Positions 4,710 through 14,145 of a stretch of DNA of 34,551 nt are shown here, in pieces. The notes under the pieces are model-generated. The model saw only the letters and a program-made list of their open reading frames with translations. It did no database searches and was not told the origin of the DNA. Numbering within the stretch: position 1 is the first letter of the stretch; each line of letters begins with the position of its first letter. Source of the DNA: a virus (Duplodnaviria > Heunggongvirae > Uroviricota > Caudoviricetes); the IMG/VR virus record IMGVR_UViG_2778261031_000007, positions 1-34,551 of that record. One strand, given 5' to 3'. A program made the position numbers and the translations under genes.

Positions 4710-5099
4710 ATGATTGACGCTCATGACTTCACAAGATGGGTGCGCACACAGGACACCCGTCTGGCTCCCGTTCTTCAGGGATTATTTGATCTCTACATCC
4801 GTGGTCGTGACAACAGAGCACGCACCACAAAACCGGAGAATGCAGACACCCTTTATTTCACAGTAGACGACTGCTACCGCGTGGACTTCACACCACACGG
4901 GCTGGCGTTGCACTGCCTGACACCACACGGAGAATCACTGCTGGCGTATTACGACTCCCCGGCCTCCGTATTTGCGGCAATGCTGGCGCATCGCACTGCT
5001 GGCGGGTGTGCCTCGCTGAGTGAATACACCGCTGAATTTAACCGCCTTTCTGCCCTCTTCTCGCAGGAGTGGCAGCGCGTGACGGGATACCAGCCATGA
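4710..5099 (+). CDS. Hypothetical protein (129 aa)
   Basis: ATG 4710; stop overlaps start of A (ATGA at 5096-5099). Confidence 0.5.
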   Translation: MIDAHDFTRWVRTQDTRLAPVLQGLFDLYIRGRDNRARTTKPENADTLYFTVDDCYRVDFTPHGLALHCLTPHGESLLAYYDSPASVFAAMLAHRTAGGCASLSEYTAEFNRLSALFSQEWQRVTGYQP

Positions 5100-7906
5100 A
5101 TGAGTTTGCATGGAGCTGGAATGAACCACGGCCAGCCATTGATCCGGCCAGATTTACGGAGCACAGGCAGGAAACTGAAACCGACCTGCAACGCGCCATC
5201 CGTTACTACCTTGAGGCAGACAAAAAGGCTCTGGAAGAACAGGAAGCGAAGGAGGAAGCCTTTTTCGCACAATCCACCGTGGGTAAAAAACTCATGGCAT
5301 CCCTTGAGGAAGCCGGACAGCGTGAAAAGCTGGCACAAAGCATCATCAGCAAGCGTCAGGCAACAGAACAAGACCCGGTGGCCCGTGCTTTTGCCACACT
5401 GAAGGTGCTTCCCGTTTATCTGCGTGAACCTCTGAGCCGCCACCTCTCTTTCCTGCGCAAAAAACAGGAAGCCGATCGCCAGAAAGGCAAAAAGAGCTGG
5501 CAGGCTGAACGCTACGCGCGCGGAACCCTGCGCAAAATATTCGAACGTCTGGACCGCACCGATCACCGCTGGCTGACACCGGGTTATCGCTCCCTTGCCG
5601 GACGCGAACGCCTGGACGATTTGCTTTACCTGCCGCAGCTCAACAAACACCAGATACAGACGCTGGCCACCATGACGGCGGCGATGTTCAGCAGCACCTT
5701 CGAAAAACTCTGCGATGGCTTTGGCGCGACTGATGGCGAACTGACCATGGATGTAACGCTGAAGGCGTATCAGATGCTGGCCCGCATGGCGTTACACCTG
5801 CACGCCATGCCTCCACATTATGACGCACTGACAACAGACAAAGACCGGAGGAACGAACCGGACACGGAGCTGCTGCCGGGCGCAATCCTTCGCCTGACCT
5901 GTGCAGAATGGTGGAAACGCAAACTGTGGCTGTTACGTTGCGAGTGGAGAGAAGAACAACTCCGCGCCGCCTGTCTGGTTTCCAGAAAAACATCGCCCTA
6001 TCTGAGCCAGGACGCGTTAAGCGAGTTTCGCGCACAGCGCGAGAAAACACGCGATTTCCTGAAAAGTTTCATGCTGGAAAATGAAGACGGGTTCACGATT
6101 GATCTCGAGACGGTGTATTACGCGGGAGTAAGTAACCCGGTTCACCGTAAGGCAGAAATGATGGCCACCATGAAGGGGCTGGAACTTCTGGCCGAAGCCC
6201 GTGGCGACAAAGCGGTGTTTCTGACTGTCACCTGCCCGTCAAAATACCACGCCACAACAGAGAACGGTCATCCGAATCCCAAATGGAACGGGGCCACCAT
6301 GCGCGACTCCAGCGATTATCTGGTTAACACGTTTTTTGCGGCGGTCCGCAAAAAACTGAACCGCGACGGCCTGCGCTGGTATGGCATCCGCACGGTGGAG
6401 CCTCACCATGACGGCACCGTGCACTGGCATATGATGGTCTTTGCTCATCCGGAAGAAATCGACAGCATCGTGGCCATCACCCGCGATATTGCCATTCAGG
6501 AAGACCGCCACGAGCTGGGCAATGATATTACTCCGCGCTTTAAGGTGGAGTATGTCGACGGCTCCAAAGGCACACCAACCAGCTATATCGCGACCTACAT
6601 CGGAAAAAACCTGGACAGCCGCGCCGTGGATGGCATCGACCCGAAAACGGGCAAGCCACGCGTTGACCACGAAACCGGAAAATCAATGGCCGAGAGTGTG
6701 GAACGCGCCATCGGCTGGGCGCGCCTTCACCGGGTCCGCCAGTTCCAGTTCTTTGGCATCCCCTCCCGTCAGGTATGGCGTGAACTCCGCCGCCTTGCCA
6801 GCCAGATGGCACGCAACCCGGAAGGCCCGCAACGGCTGAAGGATGATGCAATGGATGCGGTACTCGCTGCCGCTGATGCCGGGTGTTTTGCCACCTACAT
6901 TGAGAAACAGGGCGGCGTACTTGTTCCACGCAAAGACTACCTGATTCGCACCGCCTACGACCTCGCAGATGAGCTGAACGATTACGGCGAACAGAGCGTA
7001 CAGATTTACGGGATCTGGTCACCACTCATCGGGGAATCCTCCCGTGTGTGCACGCACCCGGATAACTGGAAGCTGGTAAGACGTAAACCGGAAGCGGAAG
7101 ACAGCACCCGCGAAAATGGTTTTGACCTTCAGGGCGGCCCTGCCGCCCCTTGGACTCGTGGCAATAACTGTCCCCGTGTACAGGAAACGGACAACAACGG
7201 GACAGAACAGCCGGAAGAACGGCCAGCACCGTGGCCGCAGCTCCCTGACGGCGTTGAAGTGAACGAATGGATGCGCTCACTGAAACGGCACGAACGCCGG
7301 GCGCTGATGCGTTCGCTTCGTGACAAACAGGCAAAAAACAGCAGTGATGAAATGCAGAGCTGGACACAGAGCCGCAAACAGCAGCGGCCTTTGCCTGATA
7401 ACCACGAATTACTCGCTAGAGAATGGCGGGAGTCTGCTGAATCTCTCGGCCTGCATATCGGTGAACAACAAATGCAGCACCTGTTACGGGGCGGCAGTCT
7501 GTACGTTGACGGCAGCATCATTGCACCGCAGGGATTTGAAATTGTACGCAAACCGGATACCCGCCCGGACAGCCGAATCACGCAGCTCTGGCAGCGCCTG
7601 AGCCGTAATCACGGTGTAAGCAGCACGGAGATCCGCCATAACCCGGTCGCCAGCTATCTGGCACAGCTGGGGGCATCAGACCCTGAAGCGGCCACACGCC
7701 TGGCATCCACACTTCAGCAGGACCAGAACACCATGAAAACACCCGTTACCGTGCTTTCTGACATGCTGCGCGCCATCCGCGACGCAGAGCACGCACAGAG
7801 AATCAGTGAAACCACTGAACGTGCCCGCCGCAAAGCAGACCTGCTGCGGGGTGGCCTGACCAGTGGAAACAAAAACAGACAGAAACGGGATTCACAAATC
7901 CCGTAA
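5096..7906 (+). CDS. A: Replication initiator A (rolling-circle HUH endonuclease, P2 gpA-like)
   Basis: VEPHHDGTVHWHMMVF HUH motif and N-terminal AWSWNEPR match recalled P2 gpA; start set at ATG 5096 (coupled to upstream gene), alternative GTG at 5069. Confidence 0.9.
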   Translation: MNEFAWSWNEPRPAIDPARFTEHRQETETDLQRAIRYYLEADKKALEEQEAKEEAFFAQSTVGKKLMASLEEAGQREKLAQSIISKRQATEQDPVARAFATLKVLPVYLREPLSRHLSFLRKKQEADRQKGKKSWQAERYARGTLRKIFERLDRTDHRWLTPGYRSLAGRERLDDLLYLPQLNKHQIQTLATMTAAMFSSTFEKLCDGFGATDGELTMDVTLKAYQMLARMALHLHAMPPHYDALTTDKDRRNEPDTELLPGAILRLTCAEWWKRKLWLLRCEWREEQLRAACLVSRKTSPYLSQDALSEFRAQREKTRDFLKSFMLENEDGFTIDLETVYYAGVSNPVHRKAEMMATMKGLELLAEARGDKAVFLTVTCPSKYHATTENGHPNPKWNGATMRDSSDYLVNTFFAAVRKKLNRDGLRWYGIRTVEPHHDGTVHWHMMVFAHPEEIDSIVAITRDIAIQEDRHELGNDITPRFKVEYVDGSKGTPTSYIATYIGKNLDSRAVDGIDPKTGKPRVDHETGKSMAESVERAIGWARLHRVRQFQFFGIPSRQVWRELRRLASQMARNPEGPQRLKDDAMDAVLAAADAGCFATYIEKQGGVLVPRKDYLIRTAYDLADELNDYGEQSVQIYGIWSPLIGESSRVCTHPDNWKLVRRKPEAEDSTRENGFDLQGGPAAPWTRGNNCPRVQETDNNGTEQPEERPAPWPQLPDGVEVNEWMRSLKRHERRALMRSLRDKQAKNSSDEMQSWTQSRKQQRPLPDNHELLAREWRESAESLGLHIGEQQMQHLLRGGSLYVDGSIIAPQGFEIVRKPDTRPDSRITQLWQRLSRNHGVSSTEIRHNPVASYLAQLGASDPEAATRLASTLQQDQNTMKTPVTVLSDMLRAIRDAEHAQRISETTERARRKADLLRGGLTSGNKNRQKRDSQIP

Positions 7907-7980
7907 ATGAGCAAAAAACGTGCCGCGATATATGAAGCGCGCACAAAACAGGCAAGAGCGGGATTTCAGAATCCTGTAAA
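7869..7980. repeat. Imperfect direct repeat of about 38 bp (7869-7906 and 7943-7980) duplicating the 3' end of A
   Basis: ACAAAAACAGACAGAAACGGGATTCACAAATCCCGTAA versus ACAAAACAGGCAAGAGCGGGATTTCAGAATCCTGTAA; each copy contains a CGGGATT..AATCC dyad. Confidence 0.5.
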
Positions 7981-8011
7981 CGATTAATTAATCAACATAA
8001 GGAAAAGCGAC

Positions 8012-8971
8012 ATGAAAATTTGTATCGACGACGGCTCCACCAACATCAAGCTGGCATGGACTGAGAACGGCGAACGCCGCAACGCCATCAGCCCGAACAG
8101 CTTCAAGTCGGAATGGTCTGCGCCGTTCGGTGGCACGCATCCCGCGAACTACATGCTTGATGGCGTGCGCTATGGCTTTGATCCGGTCAGCGATCGCTTT
8201 GTCCAGACGACTGACACGCAATACCAGTACAGCGATGTGAATGTAATCGCCATTCATCACGCGCTGGTCAAATCAGGCATCACACCACAGGAAGTGGATG
8301 TGGTTGTCACCCTGCCACTGAGCGAGTATTTCGACACAAACGCACAGCCGGACATGGCCAACATCAACCGCAAAAAAGCGAACGTCATGCGCCCAGTGGA
8401 GTACCAGAACGGCGAAGCATTCACTATCCGTAACGTACGGGTTATGCCTGAATCCATTCCGGCTGGCTTTAAAGCACTGGCTGACATGAGTCCGTTTGAA
8501 TCCCTGCTGATTGTGGATTTAGGCGGAACCACGCTGGATGTGGCAAAGGTTCAGGGACAACTGGCAGGTATCAGCCAGGTGTTTTGCGATCCACACGTAG
8601 GCGTTTCTCTGATGGCCGATGCCGTACTGTCGGTGATGGCCACTAACGGTATGCGCACCAGTCACCACATCGCCAATACCATTATCGAACATCGCCATGA
8701 TGAAGCCTGGCTGCGCCAGCACATCCACAATGACGCGCATTACGCCAGCCTGATGGCGGTTATTCGTGAAAAGGAAGAAACACTGAAACAACGCGTGATC
8801 CGCGCGCTGGCGGGTTTTTCGGGTTACGGGCGGGTGATGGTTGTCGGTGGAGGGGCGGAGATTGTGGCACCCGCTATCCGCGAAGCCTGCGGAGTTAATG
8901 CGACTTTCATCGCGGACGGGGTGCCACAGTTTGCTCTGGTTAATGGGCTGTACGCAATGGACAAGGAGTAA
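8012..8971 (+). CDS. parM: ParM/StbA-type actin-like segregation ATPase
   Basis: 319 aa; IDDGSTNIKL, ISPNSFK, QYSDVNV, VHHAL, VMPESIPAG, DLGGTTLD, GGGAE and LVNGLY motifs collinear with recalled R1 ParM. Confidence 0.85.
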   Translation: MKICIDDGSTNIKLAWTENGERRNAISPNSFKSEWSAPFGGTHPANYMLDGVRYGFDPVSDRFVQTTDTQYQYSDVNVIAIHHALVKSGITPQEVDVVVTLPLSEYFDTNAQPDMANINRKKANVMRPVEYQNGEAFTIRNVRVMPESIPAGFKALADMSPFESLLIVDLGGTTLDVAKVQGQLAGISQVFCDPHVGVSLMADAVLSVMATNGMRTSHHIANTIIEHRHDEAWLRQHIHNDAHYASLMAVIREKEETLKQRVIRALAGFSGYGRVMVVGGGAEIVAPAIREACGVNATFIADGVPQFALVNGLYAMDKE

Positions 8972-8975
8972 ACCA

Positions 8976-9287
8976 ATGACGACTCCAACCAGACGGATAA
9001 GTTTCTATCTGAAGCCCGCCGCCGTCAAGAACGAAGGCGAAGCATGCGCCTGGCTGGACAGCCTTACACCAGAAGCCCGCAAAAGCGGCCAACGCGTAGC
9101 TTTTCTGGCCGGGCTGGCACTTCTGAAAATGAATCCAGCAGAGGCTTACCGACTGGCTGCATGGGCTGACGATGAGGCGTTATCAGTGACACAAACCAGG
9201 ACAGAGCGCCCCTTGTCACAGCCAGTACCAACCGCACAGATAACCAGTCAGATGGCTGGGAATATCCGGGCGTTGTTTCCTGAATAA
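8976..9287 (+). CDS. ParR-like small DNA-binding adaptor (call by position and size)
   Basis: 103 aa starting 5 nt after parM stop with AAGGAG RBS; same size class and arrangement as ParR. Confidence 0.45.
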   Translation: MTTPTRRISFYLKPAAVKNEGEACAWLDSLTPEARKSGQRVAFLAGLALLKMNPAEAYRLAAWADDEALSVTQTRTERPLSQPVPTAQITSQMAGNIRALFPE

Positions 9288-9293
9288 CACAAC

Positions 9294-9315
9294 ATCAGGG
9301 CGAGTTCGCCCTGAT
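9294..9315. terminator. Hairpin between convergent genes (ATCAGGGCGA-GTTC-TCGCCCTGAT)
   Basis: Near-perfect palindrome between parR-like stop and the convergent 198-aa gene stop. Confidence 0.45.
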
Positions 9316-9332
9316 GCACAAAGCATGCTAAA

Positions 9333-9929
9333 TCAGAATTTAGTATGCAATTTATCTACCAATCGCTTAGCCTCATTAAGTAGTTTTTGGTATTCCCTGC
9401 TATCGTTTTCCTGATCTTCATACGCTCGCCGAACACGCCATCGAAGAGCAAGGCATTTTAAGTTCCGGTAAAACCTCGGATTACGCTTGCGGCACTCTTC
9501 CATATAAGGTTCAAAATGGACATCAAGAAAGATTAAGGTAGAACCATAAACACGATATAGATACCGCTCATCATACAAACCGTTATTCACGGCATTAGCA
9601 CAACGCTCCCACTCATTAAAAATGAGTTTTAATGCTTTTGCTCCATCCGTTTGAGAATATTCCTCTTTTCCCCAATCAGCGATCGGAAAGTTATGGCGAT
9701 CCTTATGAATACGTAGCACTTCTGACCACGCATCGACTATGTCCTTGTTACGTTTATATGCAGCCTCGAAATCCAACGAATTTTTTTCGCGCGACGTTTT
9801 TCTTTGATTTCGTATGCTAATCACTGCAATAAGCGCACCCGCAGCTCCTGGATAAAACGTAGGGCTGGATTCCCAAATACTGGAAAAAATTTTTCCTATA
9901 TAACTAAGGGCAGAAAGAACTAGATCCAT
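9333..9929 (-). CDS. Orphan membrane-anchored protein (198 aa), unknown function
   Basis: ORF with one N-terminal hydrophobic helix (PGAAGALIAVISI) and a charged soluble domain; visibly lower G+C than flanking phage genes. Confidence 0.7.
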   Translation of the reverse strand: MDLVLSALSYIGKIFSSIWESSPTFYPGAAGALIAVISIRNQRKTSREKNSLDFEAAYKRNKDIVDAWSEVLRIHKDRHNFPIADWGKEEYSQTDGAKALKLIFNEWERCANAVNNGLYDERYLYRVYGSTLIFLDVHFEPYMEECRKRNPRFYRNLKCLALRWRVRRAYEDQENDSREYQKLLNEAKRLVDKLHTKF

Positions 9930-9942
9930 TGTATTTAACCAT

Positions 9943-9965
9943 AAAAAATGGGAGCCAAAGCCCCC
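9943..9965 (-). terminator. Attenuator-like hairpin plus U-tract immediately upstream of the 198-aa gene
   Basis: Minus strand reads GGGGGCTTTGGCTCCC then ATTTTTTA, ending 14 nt before the ATG at 9929. Confidence 0.35.
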
Positions 9966-9997
9966 ATTCTACTGAAACTACTCTAAAAAAACAGGAG

Positions 9998-10042
9998 TTA
10001 AACGTCCCAGTTTTCTTCGCTATAGATGCGGCGTACGGTCAT
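9998..10042 (-). CDS. Candidate 14-codon leader peptide (MTVRRIYSEENWDV)
   Basis: AGAGGAG RBS 7 nt before ATG; lies directly upstream of the hairpin at 9943-9965. Confidence 0.25.
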   Translation of the reverse strand: MTVRRIYSEENWDV

Positions 10043-10379
10043 AGTTAGTCTCCTCTTTTCAATCATTTAAACATCACTAATTTACTTTTAACATGGAGAT
10101 GGTTTTACAGTTGTCAACCACCTCCCCCAAATCTGTTGGGGTAAGCTATCACGCCTACCATACACATACAATGATGAGGCTATATCGTGTAGTCACACCG
10201 ATAAGGATAAGTTCATCTTCTTCGCTGCCTTAATGTGACCAAATATAGCACATTTGAAGCGATATACATCCTGTAATGATACTGCACAATAGTGCACAAA
10301 TTTGCACAATTTTTTTGAACGACTTTTTGCCCTTCCGGCCCGCGTGGCGGCTGGATCCGTCAGGGATCCGTGCGTGCAC

Positions 10380-10403
10380 AAAAAAACGCGCTTTTTCTGC
10401 GCG
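10380..10403 (-). terminator. Candidate minus-strand intrinsic terminator (CGCGC stem, then U7 on minus strand)
   Basis: Plus strand AAAAAAA-CGCGC-TTTTTCT-GCGCG. Confidence 0.3.
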
Positions 10404-10405
10404 CA

Positions 10406-10424
10406 GGTGACGGGGGAACAGCCC
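10406..10424. other. Candidate cos-like element (GGTGACGGGGGAACAGCCC)
   Basis: About 12 of 18 positions match the recalled P2/186 cohesive end GGCGAGGCGGGGAAAGCA; lies on the expected side of the portal gene. Confidence 0.2.
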
Positions 10425-10808
10425 GCGTTTCAGGGGGTAAATAGCATTCCCTGAACGATGTCGCAGCGACACAACAGAATGGCTGTATCGCTCACGCTGA
10501 GCCTGAAAAAGACGTAAGGTGTTCTGATTTGATGGGATGAAAGGTAAGGCCGTCAAAATCGCACTGAGGCGGCGAGAACATGCAGTCAGCGCGGCGGGAT
10601 TGTGTAAGAGTCTGGCCGTCGATGATAGCGATAAGTCGGAAGACGTCGTGAAATTATCTGATTGATACAGGAGCTGGAGAGTCGGGGCATAAATTTTTTA
10701 TGCCCCGGCGAAGCAGCAGACAAGCGAAGCGCGTCAGTGATGCGGCACCTTGCCGACCACACTTCATAAGTGCAAAATACGAGCAAAGAAATCAATGGAG
10801 GCTGTTCT

Positions 10809-11333
10809 ATGGTCATTAATTACAAGCAGTTACGAGAAAAACGAGATCAGGTAAAGGAGAGTTTTCGCCGCAATGAAGACCTGACCCCGCTTGTACGCAT
10901 TGCCCAGGGAATTGTTGATGCTTATGAAATCTCTCTGGAGCTGCCATCACAGACATGGACGGATAGCGACGGTAATCGCCAGCATTACGTTTCATGCGGA
11001 CTGGAAACGGCTGAAGGGTTTCGCAGAATGCCTTTATCTCAGATTCCTGCCGCTACCCCCAAAGCAAGGGGCGGCAATGATGAGCGAAAACTGATTTTCA
11101 GCATTGAGACAGTGGTTGACGACACACCTGGCGAAGTCGCCTTCGTGCATACTCCTCTTTCGATCGCAATGTATAACGATGAAATACAGGTTCGCGTTAA
11201 TAATAATATCGTGCCACTTAAAGAAGGTAATTCACCATACACCACCGTTTGTGAAGCCATTCAATATTACGTTCTCTCTGAAATTGATAATCTCAAGCCT
11301 GACGGCACCCAGAAAATGGTTCAACTCTGGTAA
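10809..11333 (+). CDS. Orphan protein (174 aa), unknown function
   Basis: GGAGG RBS at 10797-10801 with ATG at 10809 (track ORF starts at upstream GTG 10770); followed by a strong terminator. Confidence 0.65.
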   Translation: MVINYKQLREKRDQVKESFRRNEDLTPLVRIAQGIVDAYEISLELPSQTWTDSDGNRQHYVSCGLETAEGFRRMPLSQIPAATPKARGGNDERKLIFSIETVVDDTPGEVAFVHTPLSIAMYNDEIQVRVNNNIVPLKEGNSPYTTVCEAIQYYVLSEIDNLKPDGTQKMVQLW

Positions 11334-11338
11334 AAAGG

Positions 11339-11364
11339 ACAGCCCCATCACGGGGCTGTTTTTT
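11339..11364. terminator. Bidirectional terminator shared by the 174-aa gene and portal gene
   Basis: CAGCCCC-ATCAC-GGGGCTG then T6; portal stop codon lies in the loop. Confidence 0.6.
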
Positions 11365-12394
11365 CATCAAGAAGAGCATAAGAATTAAAACGGATCACCT
11401 CTTCGCCAAGCCAGTCATTGATGTGCTTCATGGCCTCCATAACGGGCATCAGCTCGTTAATTGCGTAAACCCGCGCGGCCTTTTCCACATCACCAAACGC
11501 ACTTTTTTCACCCGGCATCGCCCCCATCAGTTGCGGCGGAACGCGGTGCGCAGCCAGCACATCATCACGGGATGCCGCCTTAACATTCATGAACTCATCC
11601 TTTGCGGTGATCTGCTGGAACGGCAAAATTTGCACACCTTCTTTGCCCCCGTTGGGCGCATGAATGAGCACGTTTTTAAACGCACCACCACCACGTGCAC
11701 CCTGTAGCGTTTCTTTCAGGGAGTCCATGCTTTCGCGGTTTACCTGCGCTGCACCGATGTAGATGATACACCCGGCGTGGGATCCGTTGTCGTAATACAG
11801 TTTTCTGAACATGTCCGCCGAATGAGACAGGCTGGCCGAGAGTAATGCGCCGAGATATTCCGGCATGCCGTAGATTTCCTGGTTAATGTCAGGATTCATC
11901 AGGTGGCACACTTTGCCAGGGCGAAACTGAAACGCGTCCTTACCATCCTGCACATACCACCATGATTCAAGATCGCTTCCGCGTCGCATGTATTTCGCCA
12001 GGGCGTGCCGTAATTTAAGCGGTTCGCCGAGCATATTGCTTCGAAGCTCAAGGAATGCGTTACCGAACACAAACCAGTCCAGCGCCAGCGCCGAGAAATC
12101 CTGCCGGGAAAGCAGCGGGTGCGGAATATAGCAACCGAGCAATACATTGCGCTTAAAGTAAAGCGCAGACTGATGCCAGGACGTTTGCCGGGCCGCTCTT
12201 GCCAGACCGTACCAGTCCACCGGGGTTTCATACCACCGCCCGTTATCAGCACAGTACATATTGTCCAGCAGGTCATGCCCGGTCAGGCGATAAGGACCAT
12301 CAAATGTGAATGCACTGAGCGATGATTCTTTCCTGAGCGCATCAGCGAGATCAATGCGTGAACTCATGCGCACTTTTTTATTTTTTCTGCTCAT
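11348..12394 (-). CDS. Q: Portal protein (gpQ)
   Basis: 348 aa; SAFTFDGPYRLTGHDLLDNMYCADNGRWYETPVDWYGLA matches recalled P2 gpQ. Confidence 0.95.
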   Translation of the reverse strand: MSRKNKKVRMSSRIDLADALRKESSLSAFTFDGPYRLTGHDLLDNMYCADNGRWYETPVDWYGLARAARQTSWHQSALYFKRNVLLGCYIPHPLLSRQDFSALALDWFVFGNAFLELRSNMLGEPLKLRHALAKYMRRGSDLESWWYVQDGKDAFQFRPGKVCHLMNPDINQEIYGMPEYLGALLSASLSHSADMFRKLYYDNGSHAGCIIYIGAAQVNRESMDSLKETLQGARGGGAFKNVLIHAPNGGKEGVQILPFQQITAKDEFMNVKAASRDDVLAAHRVPPQLMGAMPGEKSAFGDVEKAARVYAINELMPVMEAMKHINDWLGEEVIRFNSYALLDEKTAP

Positions 12395-14145
12395 CAGAAC
12401 TCCATAACCGTGAAACGCTCGTTTTCTCCTTCGCCGCCAATCGGTTCGTTAATGACAGCAAGCATGGTTGCCCACGCAAGGTCGCCGTGGCTGATCCCCC
12501 TCGCGCGGTCCGTTTCGTAAGTGATAAAGCCGCCCGGTGTTTTCACCTTACGCACGGCGTTAAAGGCTGCGACCAGCTCGCGTTCGGCGCGATCGTATTC
12601 CCACCGCCCGGCGCGCATTATTTGCAGCATTTTCAGTACCAGCGACCGTTTTGATGACAGCGTGAAGGTGTACGGAATAGCAGCAGGGAAAAACCGTTTC
12701 ACTATCTGATAAACAGCCTCCCCGTTCCCGCCCGTCACATCAATGCCGATGTGTTCCACGTTGTAGCGATACGTGAACTCTTCAATGACTCTGGCCTGTT
12801 CTTCAAACTCCAGCCCCTGAACGCGTCGCGTCTCCACCGTTCGAAAACGGCCACCAGGAACAGCCGGAGGAGCCACCACAGACACAGCGCCGCTGTCGCC
12901 GTTGCCACTGCTGCCGTTTGCGTCATACCCAATCCATACCGGACGATTTCCCATCGGGCGGGGAGCAAAAGGTTTCCAGTCTTTCCAGTCGTCGTATCCG
13001 TCAACGCCGCAGCCAATCAGGATGTTCAGGTTAAATGCCGATTCCCCTTCGCGGACAAACTCACACATGTAGAGATTGAGGAACTCGTCTTCGGTGTTTT
13101 CATCACGGATTTCGTCAATATCGGTGTGTTTCCAGCCGTGATTAACCACATCTTCCAGCGTGACAATCTGCCGCCACGTCCGGTCAGGGCAGATAAGCCC
13201 GTTATGCAGCGTTTTCCAGTCCACAGAAAAACGCTGGCGTTTATGCGTGGCCTTTTTCTCGTTCCAGCGGTCGCCGTTCCAGTAGGCGTATGCCTCGTGC
13301 GTTTCGGTGGATGGCGTGGAGAAGTAGGTGCGCCGCAGTCCGCTGAGGGTTGCCATAGCGCCAGCCACCTTGCGCAGTTCAGCAAAGCGACTGACCCAGA
13401 AAAATTCATCAAAATAAAAATTGCCCGTATAGGACTGTGCCGACGCAGCAGAAGTGCCGAGAAAATGCAGCTCTGCGCCGTTGGAGAGGATGATTTTATC
13501 ACCCCCTTTCAGCTCCACATCAACTTCAGCCGCGGCCTTCTGAATAATGCTTTTAAACTGGAACGCCTGACGACGCGACGCAGACAAAAAAATCTGGTTA
13601 CGCTGGTAAGGTTGCGCCACATCGTCACGCAGCGCCATCAGCAGTGCTTCCTGTGCAAAATACCAGGTCGCCCCAATCTGTCGGGATTTCAGGATCATCC
13701 TGTTACGTATCCCGGCTTCCCTGCAAAGGGTCAGGGAGTCAAACCAGCCTTGCTGATGCCACTCCAGCCTGCTGATGATTTTTTCCCGCAGTGCGGCAAT
13801 CTGTTCCGGCGTGAAATGATTTTTGAGTTTTTTCGCCCGGCCTTTCTTTCCTGCGGCCATCACATCCGGCTGGCCATCATGCAGCTTTTTAAGCTGCCGG
13901 GTCAGCAGGTCTATTTCCTTAAAGTCACCGCCTGTTTTATTCTGTTTTTCAGTAAGCTGGATGAGGCGCGCATCAATGGACTGCGTGACACGCTGCACGG
14001 GTGGCGTTTCATCCCACTGGTCGCGTTTTTTCCACGCATAAATCGTGTTCGGGTTTATTCCCATCAGACGTGATATTTCTGCGGGCGGATAACCCTGCCA
14101 GTAAAGTTGCCGCGCACGCTGGCGCACAAAAGCGTCCTGAATCAT
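12394..14145 (-). CDS. P: Terminase large (ATPase) subunit (gpP)
   Basis: 583 aa, immediately upstream of portal and overlapping its start, as in P2. Confidence 0.93.
   Translation of the reverse strand: MIQDAFVRQRARQLYWQGYPPAEISRLMGINPNTIYAWKKRDQWDETPPVQRVTQSIDARLIQLTEKQNKTGGDFKEIDLLTRQLKKLHDGQPDVMAAGKKGRAKKLKNHFTPEQIAALREKIISRLEWHQQGWFDSLTLCREAGIRNRMILKSRQIGATWYFAQEALLMALRDDVAQPYQRNQIFLSASRRQAFQFKSIIQKAAAEVDVELKGGDKIILSNGAELHFLGTSAASAQSYTGNFYFDEFFWVSRFAELRKVAGAMATLSGLRRTYFSTPSTETHEAYAYWNGDRWNEKKATHKRQRFSVDWKTLHNGLICPDRTWRQIVTLEDVVNHGWKHTDIDEIRDENTEDEFLNLYMCEFVREGESAFNLNILIGCGVDGYDDWKDWKPFAPRPMGNRPVWIGYDANGSSGNGDSGAVSVVAPPAVPGGRFRTVETRRVQGLEFEEQARVIEEFTYRYNVEHIGIDVTGGNGEAVYQIVKRFFPAAIPYTFTLSSKRSLVLKMLQIMRAGRWEYDRAERELVAAFNAVRKVKTPGGFITYETDRARGISHGDLAWATMLAVINEPIGGEGENERFTVMEF

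Follow-up and report, generated by a model that had tools for sequence, protein, structure and literature searches.

Small membrane-anchored proteins of the prophage exclusion and abortive-infection type, such as SieB of P22 and lambda or Imm of T4, are described accessory products of phages. In P2-like phages, accessory and anti-phage genes gather between gpA and gpQ, a hotspot adjoining cos that has been surveyed across 18,150 E. coli loci and in which about one P2-like phage in four has a putative partition system (Rousset et al. 2022, PMC9122126); the same region has likewise been recognised as a site of accessory and anti-phage genes in a separate study (PMC13586616). Here we analyse positions 7907-11347 of a viral DNA stretch of 34,551 nucleotides (nt; IMG/VR record IMGVR_UViG_2778261031_000007), hereafter called the window at its full length, which is an almost complete P88-like prophage of P2 type from E. 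coli (genus Xuanwuvirus, family Peduoviridae). Our main subject is a gene of 198 amino acids (aa) of the Pfam family DUF4760 that occupies this hotspot. An acidic leader open reading frame (ORF) followed by a terminator stands before the DUF4760 gene in all 29 loci scored, and this arrangement is the new finding reported here.

Two lines of earlier work are close to such a leader. Early acidic residues in a short ORF can pause or destabilise ribosomes; the leader MgtL regulates mgtA in this way, and the ABC-F factor EttA modulates the effect (PMC11282234). Furthermore, when the distance between a stop codon and a terminator grows from 8 to 30 nt, termination efficiency rises from near 0 to about 0.9 through the coupling of ribosome and polymerase (Li et al. 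2016, PMC4824070).

Upstream DNA was available for 29 DUF4760 loci, all of which were scored; they come from varied phages and bacteria and include Colwellia, Pseudoalteromonas, a low-GC (guanine plus cytosine) Rep_1 contig and a high-GC contig. A scan of genome contigs yielded three loci only. In all 29, the gene is preceded by a Shine-Dalgarno-led ORF of 8-20 codons that encodes an acidic peptide, for example MKKIYREEDWGVFISK, MTKFVKIFNEENWGF, MKTFREEDWGLS or MKKVFDEFDGF, and in more distant members MKQFKKILNEELWD (Colwellia), MLISKHNPEEEKWT (Pseudoalteromonas), MFREEDWGVS, MYLEEDWEF (low-GC contig), MKLYRDCEEEIIR and MRDGDDGN (high-GC contig). The conserved motif reads [FY]-x-E-E-[ND]-W-[GD]. 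With this pattern, which was partly defined after the data had been seen, a motif-bearing short ORF was found on the sense strand of 29/29 loci and on the antisense strand of 0/29, in 0/28 and 0/26 control windows, and in 3 of 2900 shuffles. The core EE[ND]W alone is written in 20 distinct nucleotide versions, and acidic stretches (EE(N/D), DEFD, CEEE or DGDD) lie between residues 3 and 12 in all loci. Variation falls at synonymous positions, such as GAA/GAG, GAT/GAC, CGT/CGC/AGA for arginine and TTA/TTG/CTG for leucine. Because these substitutions follow a coding pattern, the leader ORF is conserved as a protein, and the comparison makes it very probable that it is translated and functionally linked to DUF4760.

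The second element is equally constant. A terminator hairpin equivalent to that of the window is placed just before the DUF4760 start codon in 29/29 loci, in 23 distinct sequences with a stem of 9-13 bp and a T-run; three to five pair types occur per stem position, and the changes are compensatory. The stop codon of the leader is separated from the stem by 16-35 nt (median 24) across the loci and by 27 nt in the window. Neither Rfam nor the literature searched contains a description of this leader and terminator. The 5' arm of the terminator is purine-rich in all DUF4760 leaders (window 9960-9970, minus strand), often resembles a Shine-Dalgarno site (GGAGG, GAGG, AGGAG) and is similar in several clades to a purine-rich leader motif, GAAGAGRAYTGGGG. 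A pairing of that motif with the 3' arm, suggested by visual impression, fails in two distant members (L042, L043) and was discarded. Promoter-like sites are found upstream of the leader in every locus, but they lie at variable distances in AT-rich DNA and have no evidence value.

The downstream gene had been called an orphan. Its product matches PF15956 at 87.5 bits against a gathering cut-off of 25, over positions 5-141 of the 141 in the profile, and DUF4760 is the only Pfam family above threshold, next to a marginal sub-threshold match to PaREP1 (E 0.045). The protein consists of an N-terminal hydrophobic anchor, a basic stretch and an all-helical domain of about 150 aa, which the AlphaFold2 model likewise renders as all-helical (predicted local distance difference test, pLDDT, 88.8); the motifs EKNSLDFE and FNEWERCANA are invariant in the family alignment. 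The initial annotation, made from the window alone, was right in describing a convergent AT-rich membrane-protein gene with its own leader: the gene has 41% GC and a hydrophobic N-terminus and is convergent with parR, and the leader comprises the 14-codon ORF and the hairpin. A library-wide profile search returned 591 DUF4760 clusters at 50% identity, almost all single-domain proteins of 120-350 aa. One member of 425 aa (P0079) is a tandem of two DUF4760 units, both with a hydrophobic anchor of their own, which hints that the family may act as dimers or oligomers. In the phage PV468777 (L002 2968-3810, minus strand), a DUF4760 protein of 165 aa is followed by a 280-aa protein with a weak PADLOC match (E 1e-5) to Csx27, a type VI-B CRISPR-associated membrane protein; this pair may be a two-gene variant of the cassette.

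On the minus strand the cassette runs from the promoter-like site through acidic leader ORF, intrinsic terminator and DUF4760 gene to a second terminator, the hairpin at 9292-9317, which would end the cassette and probably parMR too. Its GC content of 0.39-0.41 compares with 0.53-0.57 in the backbone and makes it the only low-GC insert of the interval. Of 5426 E. coli genomes, 15 contain it, each time as the block 9318-10282, and three alleles with identities down to 21% fill the same slot in P88-like phages. Homologues stand alone between the antiterminator Q and holin genes in Klebsiella lambdoid prophages, and, beside smpB, at the end of an HP1/P2-like prophage; a small Rep_1 replicon and further mobile contexts carry them as well, and most IMG/VR loci have neither gpA nor portal neighbours. 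From these comparisons we regard the cassette as a horizontally acquired, self-contained single-gene 'moron'. IS5 or IS1 interrupts or adjoins the DUF4760 region in several E. coli genomes (H24, H26-H28; approximately window 9200-10900), and the slot is therefore also a target of insertion sequences.

How might the leader control the gene? On balance, and by analogy with the ribosome-dependent leaders mentioned above, we are inclined to think that it acts as an attenuator. Transcription into DUF4760 would depend on the passage of ribosomes through the acidic EE(N/D)W core, and the position of the lead ribosome relative to RNA polymerase would directly affect how the terminator hairpin folds. 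Termination would be weakened when the ribosome keeps pace with the polymerase up to the stop codon; with a pause or drop-off at the acidic motif, the terminator would act unhindered. We deem such a direct effect on the hairpin the likeliest route because no conserved antiterminator RNA was found. The spacing of the leaders falls within the distance-sensitive range measured by Li et al. (PMC4824070). DUF4760 would then be a membrane-anchored effector of lysogenic conversion that is kept at a low or conditional level. Taken as a whole, an interval of composite make-up that contains an attenuator-gated membrane effector is the explanation we favour, and we consider it rather probable.

Several observations weigh against attenuation. 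The spacer pairs with the 5' arm of the terminator no better than shuffled spacers do (mean z 0.05), with duplexes of -0.1 to -9 kcal/mol against -11 to -22 for the terminators, and pairing between leader and spacer exceeds that of shuffled sequence only marginally (mean z -0.5). Between a ribosome parked at the stop codon and the hairpin, about 10-15 nt would remain. The leader motif is devoid of proline, which is present in the best-studied acidic destabilising motifs, and MgtL works via a Rho-dependent rather than an intrinsic terminator (PMC11282234). Moreover, the consensus scan did not report the putative promoter of the leader at 10089-10117. Finally, a small gene whose leaky terminator sets the ratio of peptide to protein would account for the layout just as well.

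This last point leads to the main rival of the attenuator. Here the leader peptide would be the partner of DUF4760, as an inhibitor or antitoxin, a ligand or a substrate, and not a sensor; the terminator would serve to make the peptide far more abundant than the protein, and a labile peptide that is lost upon shut-off of host translation would release DUF4760 activity. Precursor-peptide genes with leaky terminators, as in mccA-mccB of microcin C, provide a likeness. What is conserved across distant bacteria is the peptide sequence beyond its codons, which suits a partner, as does the failure to find an antiterminator RNA. An invariant charged and polar patch of DUF4760 (K49, N50, D53, N105, E108, R109, Y119, D120) could bind an acidic peptide. 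Peptide variants also track the DUF4760 clades, but such tracking is expected from plain co-inheritance as well. Peptides of 8-16 residues without potential for secondary structure are unusual as stable partners, and the tight spacing of stop codon and terminator (16-35 nt) would be needless for simple stoichiometry. We therefore hold a partner role to be unlikely, if well worth keeping in mind.

Whichever way the leader works, the function of DUF4760 can be approached through its setting. We take it to be an accessory function under conflict-type selection because the cassette is autonomous, low in GC and present in several families of temperate phages, divergent alleles are swapped at a defence hotspot, the protein has a membrane anchor and a tight termination signal lies upstream. 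Phage exclusion or abortive infection is our leading guess for its role. That the output of the cassette is anti-phage can be put forward from sequence only tentatively, and we doubt it more than we believe it. Against a defence role, PADLOC-DB v2 gave no match at E ≤ 0.1 for ParM, ParR, DUF4760 or the 174-aa protein encoded beyond cos, and only marginal, non-specific matches for relatives; the literature searched holds a passing mention of DUF4760 and nothing on its function; and none of the 591 family clusters carries a fused enzymatic domain. The profile searches that had been proposed as a check place neither protein in a housekeeping or structural family, in line with the initial annotation, which had taken both for orphans; they did not lead to a known defence family either, and the 198-aa protein proved to have a Pfam family after all (DUF4760, E 1e-24).

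The lack of defence-family similarity and of enzymatic fusions would equally suit a factor of lysogenic conversion or phage physiology with no part in defence, for example a modulator of membrane or stress state or a late lysis-timing factor, in which case the attenuator would merely limit a membrane protein in lysogens. The lambdoid position between Q and holin agrees with this, since late read-through transcripts would express DUF4760 there during lysis. Yet the gene is also found at positions unrelated to lysis (in P2-like phages at the hotspot near cos, elsewhere at the end of a tail-gene module or on the small Rep_1 replicon), and very divergent alleles replace each other at a known defence hotspot. 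We judge a purely physiological role to be rather unlikely. To return to attenuation, its most complete form sees DUF4760 and its leader as a mobile single-gene module in which the motif would sense the state of the translation machinery, be it ribosome stability, the Mg2+ or energy level via ABC-F factors or a perturbation induced by a phage, the terminator would be read through with no antiterminator RNA involved, and a membrane effector would then exclude or abort infecting phages. So extended, it is a speculation that we consider improbable.

The surroundings of the cassette can be resolved into defined parts. The coordinates of all features are collected in Table 1.

Table 1. Features of the interval and its flanks (positions in the window; a dot stands in place of a strand).
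Feature	Position	Strand	Basis or remark
gpA	5069-7906	+	Pfam Phage_GPA, E 6e-131
parC-like centromere/operator candidate: two 39-nt direct repeats, 7872-7910 and 7945-7983	7872-7983	+	repeat search, 74% identity between copies, 73-nt spacing
parM, actin-like segregation ATPase, 319 aa	8012-8971	+	Pfam StbA_N E 3e-82, ParM_N E 1e-68; phrog_691 'partition protein' E 3e-90
parR/stbB-type partition adaptor, 103 aa	8976-9287	+	Pfam Plasmid_stab_B E 2e-24; phrog_2515 E 2e-58
Hairpin, 11-bp stem, between convergent parR and DUF4760 genes	9292-9317	.	terminator scan
DUF4760 gene, 198 aa, 41% GC	9333-9929	-	Pfam PF15956 E 1e-24; convergent with parR
Intrinsic terminator, 11-bp stem AGAATGGGGGC/GCTCCCATTTT and T-run	9943-9970	-	13 nt upstream of DUF4760 ATG
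Leader ORF, 14 codons, MTVRRIYSEENWDV, stop TAA	9998-10042	-	Shine-Dalgarno-led
Shine-Dalgarno GAGGAG of leader ORF, 7 nt before ATG	10050-10055	-	sequence
Promoter-like site TTGACA-17-ATGTTA upstream of leader ORF, weak -10	10089-10117	-	sequence reading; inference only
cos packaging site (predicted)	10283-10424	+	TGCAC boxes 10283, 10293, 10303, 10375; GC hairpin 10387-10403; G-rich 19-mer 10406-10424
Post-cos backbone spacer	10425-10745	.	conserved among P88-like phages; contains hairpin 10683-10707
174-aa orphan gene, phrog_5091, predicted alpha/beta protein, 46% GC	10809-11333	+	GGAGG Shine-Dalgarno site
Hairpin common to convergent 174-aa and portal genes, 9-bp stem, T-runs on both strands	11339-11359	.	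terminator scan
Portal gene	11348-12394	-	Pfam Phage_portal

The elements that the initial annotation had listed (gpA, the parM/parR pair, the 198-aa gene, a non-coding stretch, the 174-aa gene and a shared terminator) are present at or near the places it gave. It had also put the interval at the tin/old position of P2, without tin and old; comparison with the P2 record, which carries both genes at the equivalent position, bears this out, as no homologue of either was seen in the interval. The gpA of the window has 945 aa against 761 aa in P2, and its Phage_GPA domain spans residues 194-518 only, with long N- and C-terminal extensions beyond. Sixteen phage records match 7907-11347 at 92-98% identity, in pieces only, and annotated relatives have the gene order gpA, parM, parR, variable genes, portal in common. 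The view of a variable locus for anti-phage and accessory genes holds both in the published surveys (Rousset et al. 2022, PMC9122126; PMC13586616) and in the differing gene content of P88-like relatives. As a locus, however, it is already catalogued in outline and hence not undescribed. Table S5 of Rousset et al. 2022 contains arrangements of DUF4760, StbA and Plasmid_stab_B, with or without hypothetical genes, that have the same Pfam content, and lists WP_000366644 (the 198-aa protein) and, in other arrangements, WP_001407222 (the 174-aa protein). DUF4760 is absent from the table of tested systems in the same study.

What had been taken for a single cargo island consists of two variable slots parted by cos, because ParMR and the non-coding core belong to the backbone and are not cargo. 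Between parR and position 10282, the left slot holds ClpX-zinc-finger and small genes in P88 and PhiR44_2, an Ead/Ea22-like gene in P884B11, a DUF4760 gene of 172 aa in Shae_phiSM, and the 165-aa DUF4760 gene with its 280-aa neighbour in PV468777. In the right slot, beyond cos, some relatives have the 174-aa gene and others lack it. The distributions of the two orphan genes are independent: the DUF4760 cassette is found in 15 and the 174-aa gene in 397 of the 5426 E. coli genomes, and one locus (L019) has DUF4760 without the 174-aa gene. The comparison of related P2-like prophages therefore confirmed turnover for the left-slot genes, while ParMR, cos and spacer stay constant and the 174-aa gene is mostly beside the portal gene. 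We hold with high confidence that the interval is a composite of five units, namely ParMR cassette, DUF4760 cassette, cos, post-cos spacer and 174-aa gene, the identity of cos included. The opposite notion, that 7.9-11.35 kb form one cargo island whose structured non-coding DNA is part of an undescribed defence system, for instance a non-coding RNA acting with both orphan genes, could appeal to the documented hotspot, the enrichment of hairpins and two proteins without known function, but it is very improbable and largely refuted, given a non-coding core that is cos and backbone of P2-like architecture in about 1150 genomes whatever the cargo, no Rfam family match at E ≤ 1 across 7000-12500, and orphan genes that lie on opposite sides of cos and occur independently (15 versus 397 genomes; L019).

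Other hotspots of this kind contained further cargo. In the Enterobacter phage phiT5282H (Novemvirus; L009 165-3448), an AAA protein annotated as FtsH and a 734-aa hypothetical protein left of cos look like an uncharacterised two-gene cargo. The P2-like prophage of E. coli AMSCJX04 (L049 4222-6701) has three minus-strand hypothetical genes (253, 114 and 469 aa) that are oriented like old and tin and fill the space from gpA to the cos core.

The gene-free stretch, 9930-10808, measures 879 bp, and terminator-like hairpins are enriched in the interval (13 against 4.2 ± 2.2 in shuffles). The structured non-coding DNA of 0.9 kb reported at first exists, but its core is cos and backbone and the rest is putative promoter and leader of the DUF4760 gene. 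We identify 10283-10424 as the predicted cos because the offsets of its boxes are P2-like, its 19-mer and these offsets are conserved in diverged lineages, and conservation starts at the first box. The annotated cohesive end of P2 (NC_001895), 19 nt long, is located between old and Q. The predicted cohesive-end sequence of the window is the 19-mer GGTGACGGGGGAACAGCCC at 10406-10424, from which four TGCAC boxes stand at -123/-113/-103/-31; the TGCAY boxes of P2 stand at -123/-111/-101/-29 from the annotated cosL. The same 19-mer with the same offsets recurs in phiT5282H and in two P2-like prophages with diverged flanks, so that it is 100% conserved across four diverged lineages. A cos core of 54 nt is found at the same place in one further P2-like prophage (H165); this was the sole partial match when a satellite with this type of cos was considered, and that candidate was dropped. 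In E. coli, 1148 of 5426 genomes have the cos core whatever the cargo, and conservation begins exactly at the first box (10282-10283). Across all P88-like phages the segment 10283-10745 shows 91-94% conservation, and in P88 it borders immediately on the portal gene; the first 145 bp of the segment are also conserved in phiT5282H, in an unannotated gap beside the portal gene.

Thus the window and P2 both place a G-rich 19-mer, preceded by a GC hairpin and four TGCAY boxes at near-identical offsets, between the hotspot and the portal gene Q; they differ at 6 of the 19 positions and in the boxes (TGCAC versus TGCAT), and the cohesive ends of the window are predicted from sequence. Some results speak against this identification. 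The match of 13/19 between the two 19-mers is not significant alone (51/500 shuffles), and aligning the P2 cos junction directly to the window produced a weak gapped alignment only, so that the match convinces only via the motif offsets. The sole linear P88-like record has its ends at 10327/10328 and not at the predicted 19-mer. As a source of cos ends, this record (P884B11, Xuanwuvirus) was treated as uninformative, since its ends fall within the cos region, 79 nt from the conserved 19-mer, and maybe reflect an assembly choice.

In the spacer behind cos, the hairpin at 10683-10707 lies next to the portal stop codon in P88 and occupies the tQ position of P2 in phages without the 174-aa gene. 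A 42-codon ORF at 10537-10665 (plus strand), annotated as hypothetical gp22 in P88, was rejected: it shows 43 non-synonymous against 4 synonymous codon differences in five relatives and mostly a GTG start, and is probably a spurious annotation.

The partition genes had been counted as cargo. ParM is 99-100% identical in the P88-like relatives compared (among them P88, PhiR44_2 and Shae_phiSM) and ParR 96-100%, with PV468777 as the single exception (52%). Because the pair is near-identical in nearly all P88-like relatives examined, we assign it to the backbone of this genus. The start of parR lies 4 nt beyond the parM stop codon. Each of the 39-nt repeats upstream of parM holds a palindrome of the type ACGGGATT-N4-AATCCCGT, and by likeness to known systems the repeats are a candidate centromere and operator. 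The R1-type (type II) ParMRC system has the same parts, namely an actin-like ParM, a small StbB/ParR-type adaptor and repeats upstream of parM. In R1, parC comprises ten 11-bp iterons, whereas the candidate of the window consists of two palindrome-bearing 39-nt repeats, and the system sits in an integrating P2-like phage.

The 174-aa gene ends 5 nt before the hairpin that it has in common with the portal gene, as annotated; an alternative GTG start at 10770 would give 187 aa. Its product has no Pfam, NCBIfam or PADLOC match, and phrog_5091 is of unknown function. The family is limited to Enterobacteriaceae, with 24 clusters even by profile search, and a second profile search added enterobacterial hypothetical proteins only. 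Against sequences of the Protein Data Bank (PDB), the profile matched nothing but de novo designed helical repeats (E down to 1e-10, residues 122-168), a stretch that the model folds into strands followed by one helix; these matches are probably compositional artefacts and were set aside. Homologues of 55-62% identity in Salmonella and other P2-like prophages lie between cos and portal, convergent with the portal gene, and a homologue of 46% identity in Trabulsiella lies just after gpA. The gene is accessory and belongs to the hotspot region, as first proposed, but it does not behave like shuffled cargo, since it adjoins the portal gene in relatives down to 55% identity. From its distribution we regard it as a lineage-conserved accessory resident, usually fixed beside the portal gene; a role as an early-expressed accessory or in counter-defence is a guess. 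Hotspots that contain this family also hold genes of toxin-antitoxin type, namely YafO (L048 3471-4475) and HicB and Phd/Fic (L050 4738-6053).

Altogether, the island is an ordinary one for P2-like phages, and most of its seemingly puzzling non-coding DNA finds a routine explanation as the cos site, whose predicted 19-mer should be useful for annotating the genome ends of P88-like and related phages that are unannotated in current records. The part worth attention is the DUF4760 gene, which travels between unrelated temperate phages with a conserved acidic leader and terminator and is found in a proven defence hotspot. It offers research on translation and RNA regulation a compact leader, about 110 nt long, whose peptide motif is strongly conserved and for which no antiterminator is apparent, and it offers research on phage defence one specific small candidate gene. 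Should the sensor-effector reading be true, both a new family of regulatory leader peptides and a new phage-borne defence gene would be at hand.

Among known systems, the gpA-gpQ hotspot of P2-like phages is the nearest counterpart of the interval, which has the same flanking genes, closeness to cos and high gene turnover among relatives; it differs in being split by cos into two slots and in lacking a match to a validated or candidate defence family. The protein itself shows no detectable sequence similarity to exclusion proteins of the SieB/Imm type (Pfam finds DUF4760 only), but resembles them as a single small gene with an N-terminal membrane anchor and as an accessory of temperate phages. 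In comparison with attenuators of the trp/his type, the DUF4760 leaders lack a mutually exclusive antiterminator and a run of codons for a regulatory amino acid; common to both are a short leader ORF with a Shine-Dalgarno site (in 29/29 loci, with a coding pattern) and an intrinsic terminator before the regulated gene. MgtL has an EPDP motif with prolines, a Rho-dependent terminator and alternative stem-loops, unlike the proline-free leader described here, which has an intrinsic terminator and no detected alternative structure; like leaders of the MgtL/EttA type, however, it is a very short ORF with acidic residues within the first 30 codons, upstream of a termination point before a membrane protein gene. 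In pyrBI, the leader ORF runs through the terminator, whereas that of DUF4760 always stops before it, and the T-rich spacers are not universal. With control of a terminator by ribosome proximity, as in pyrBI (PMC4824070), the DUF4760 leaders nevertheless share a distance from stop codon to hairpin that lies within the sensitive range and, in many cases, a T-rich spacer.

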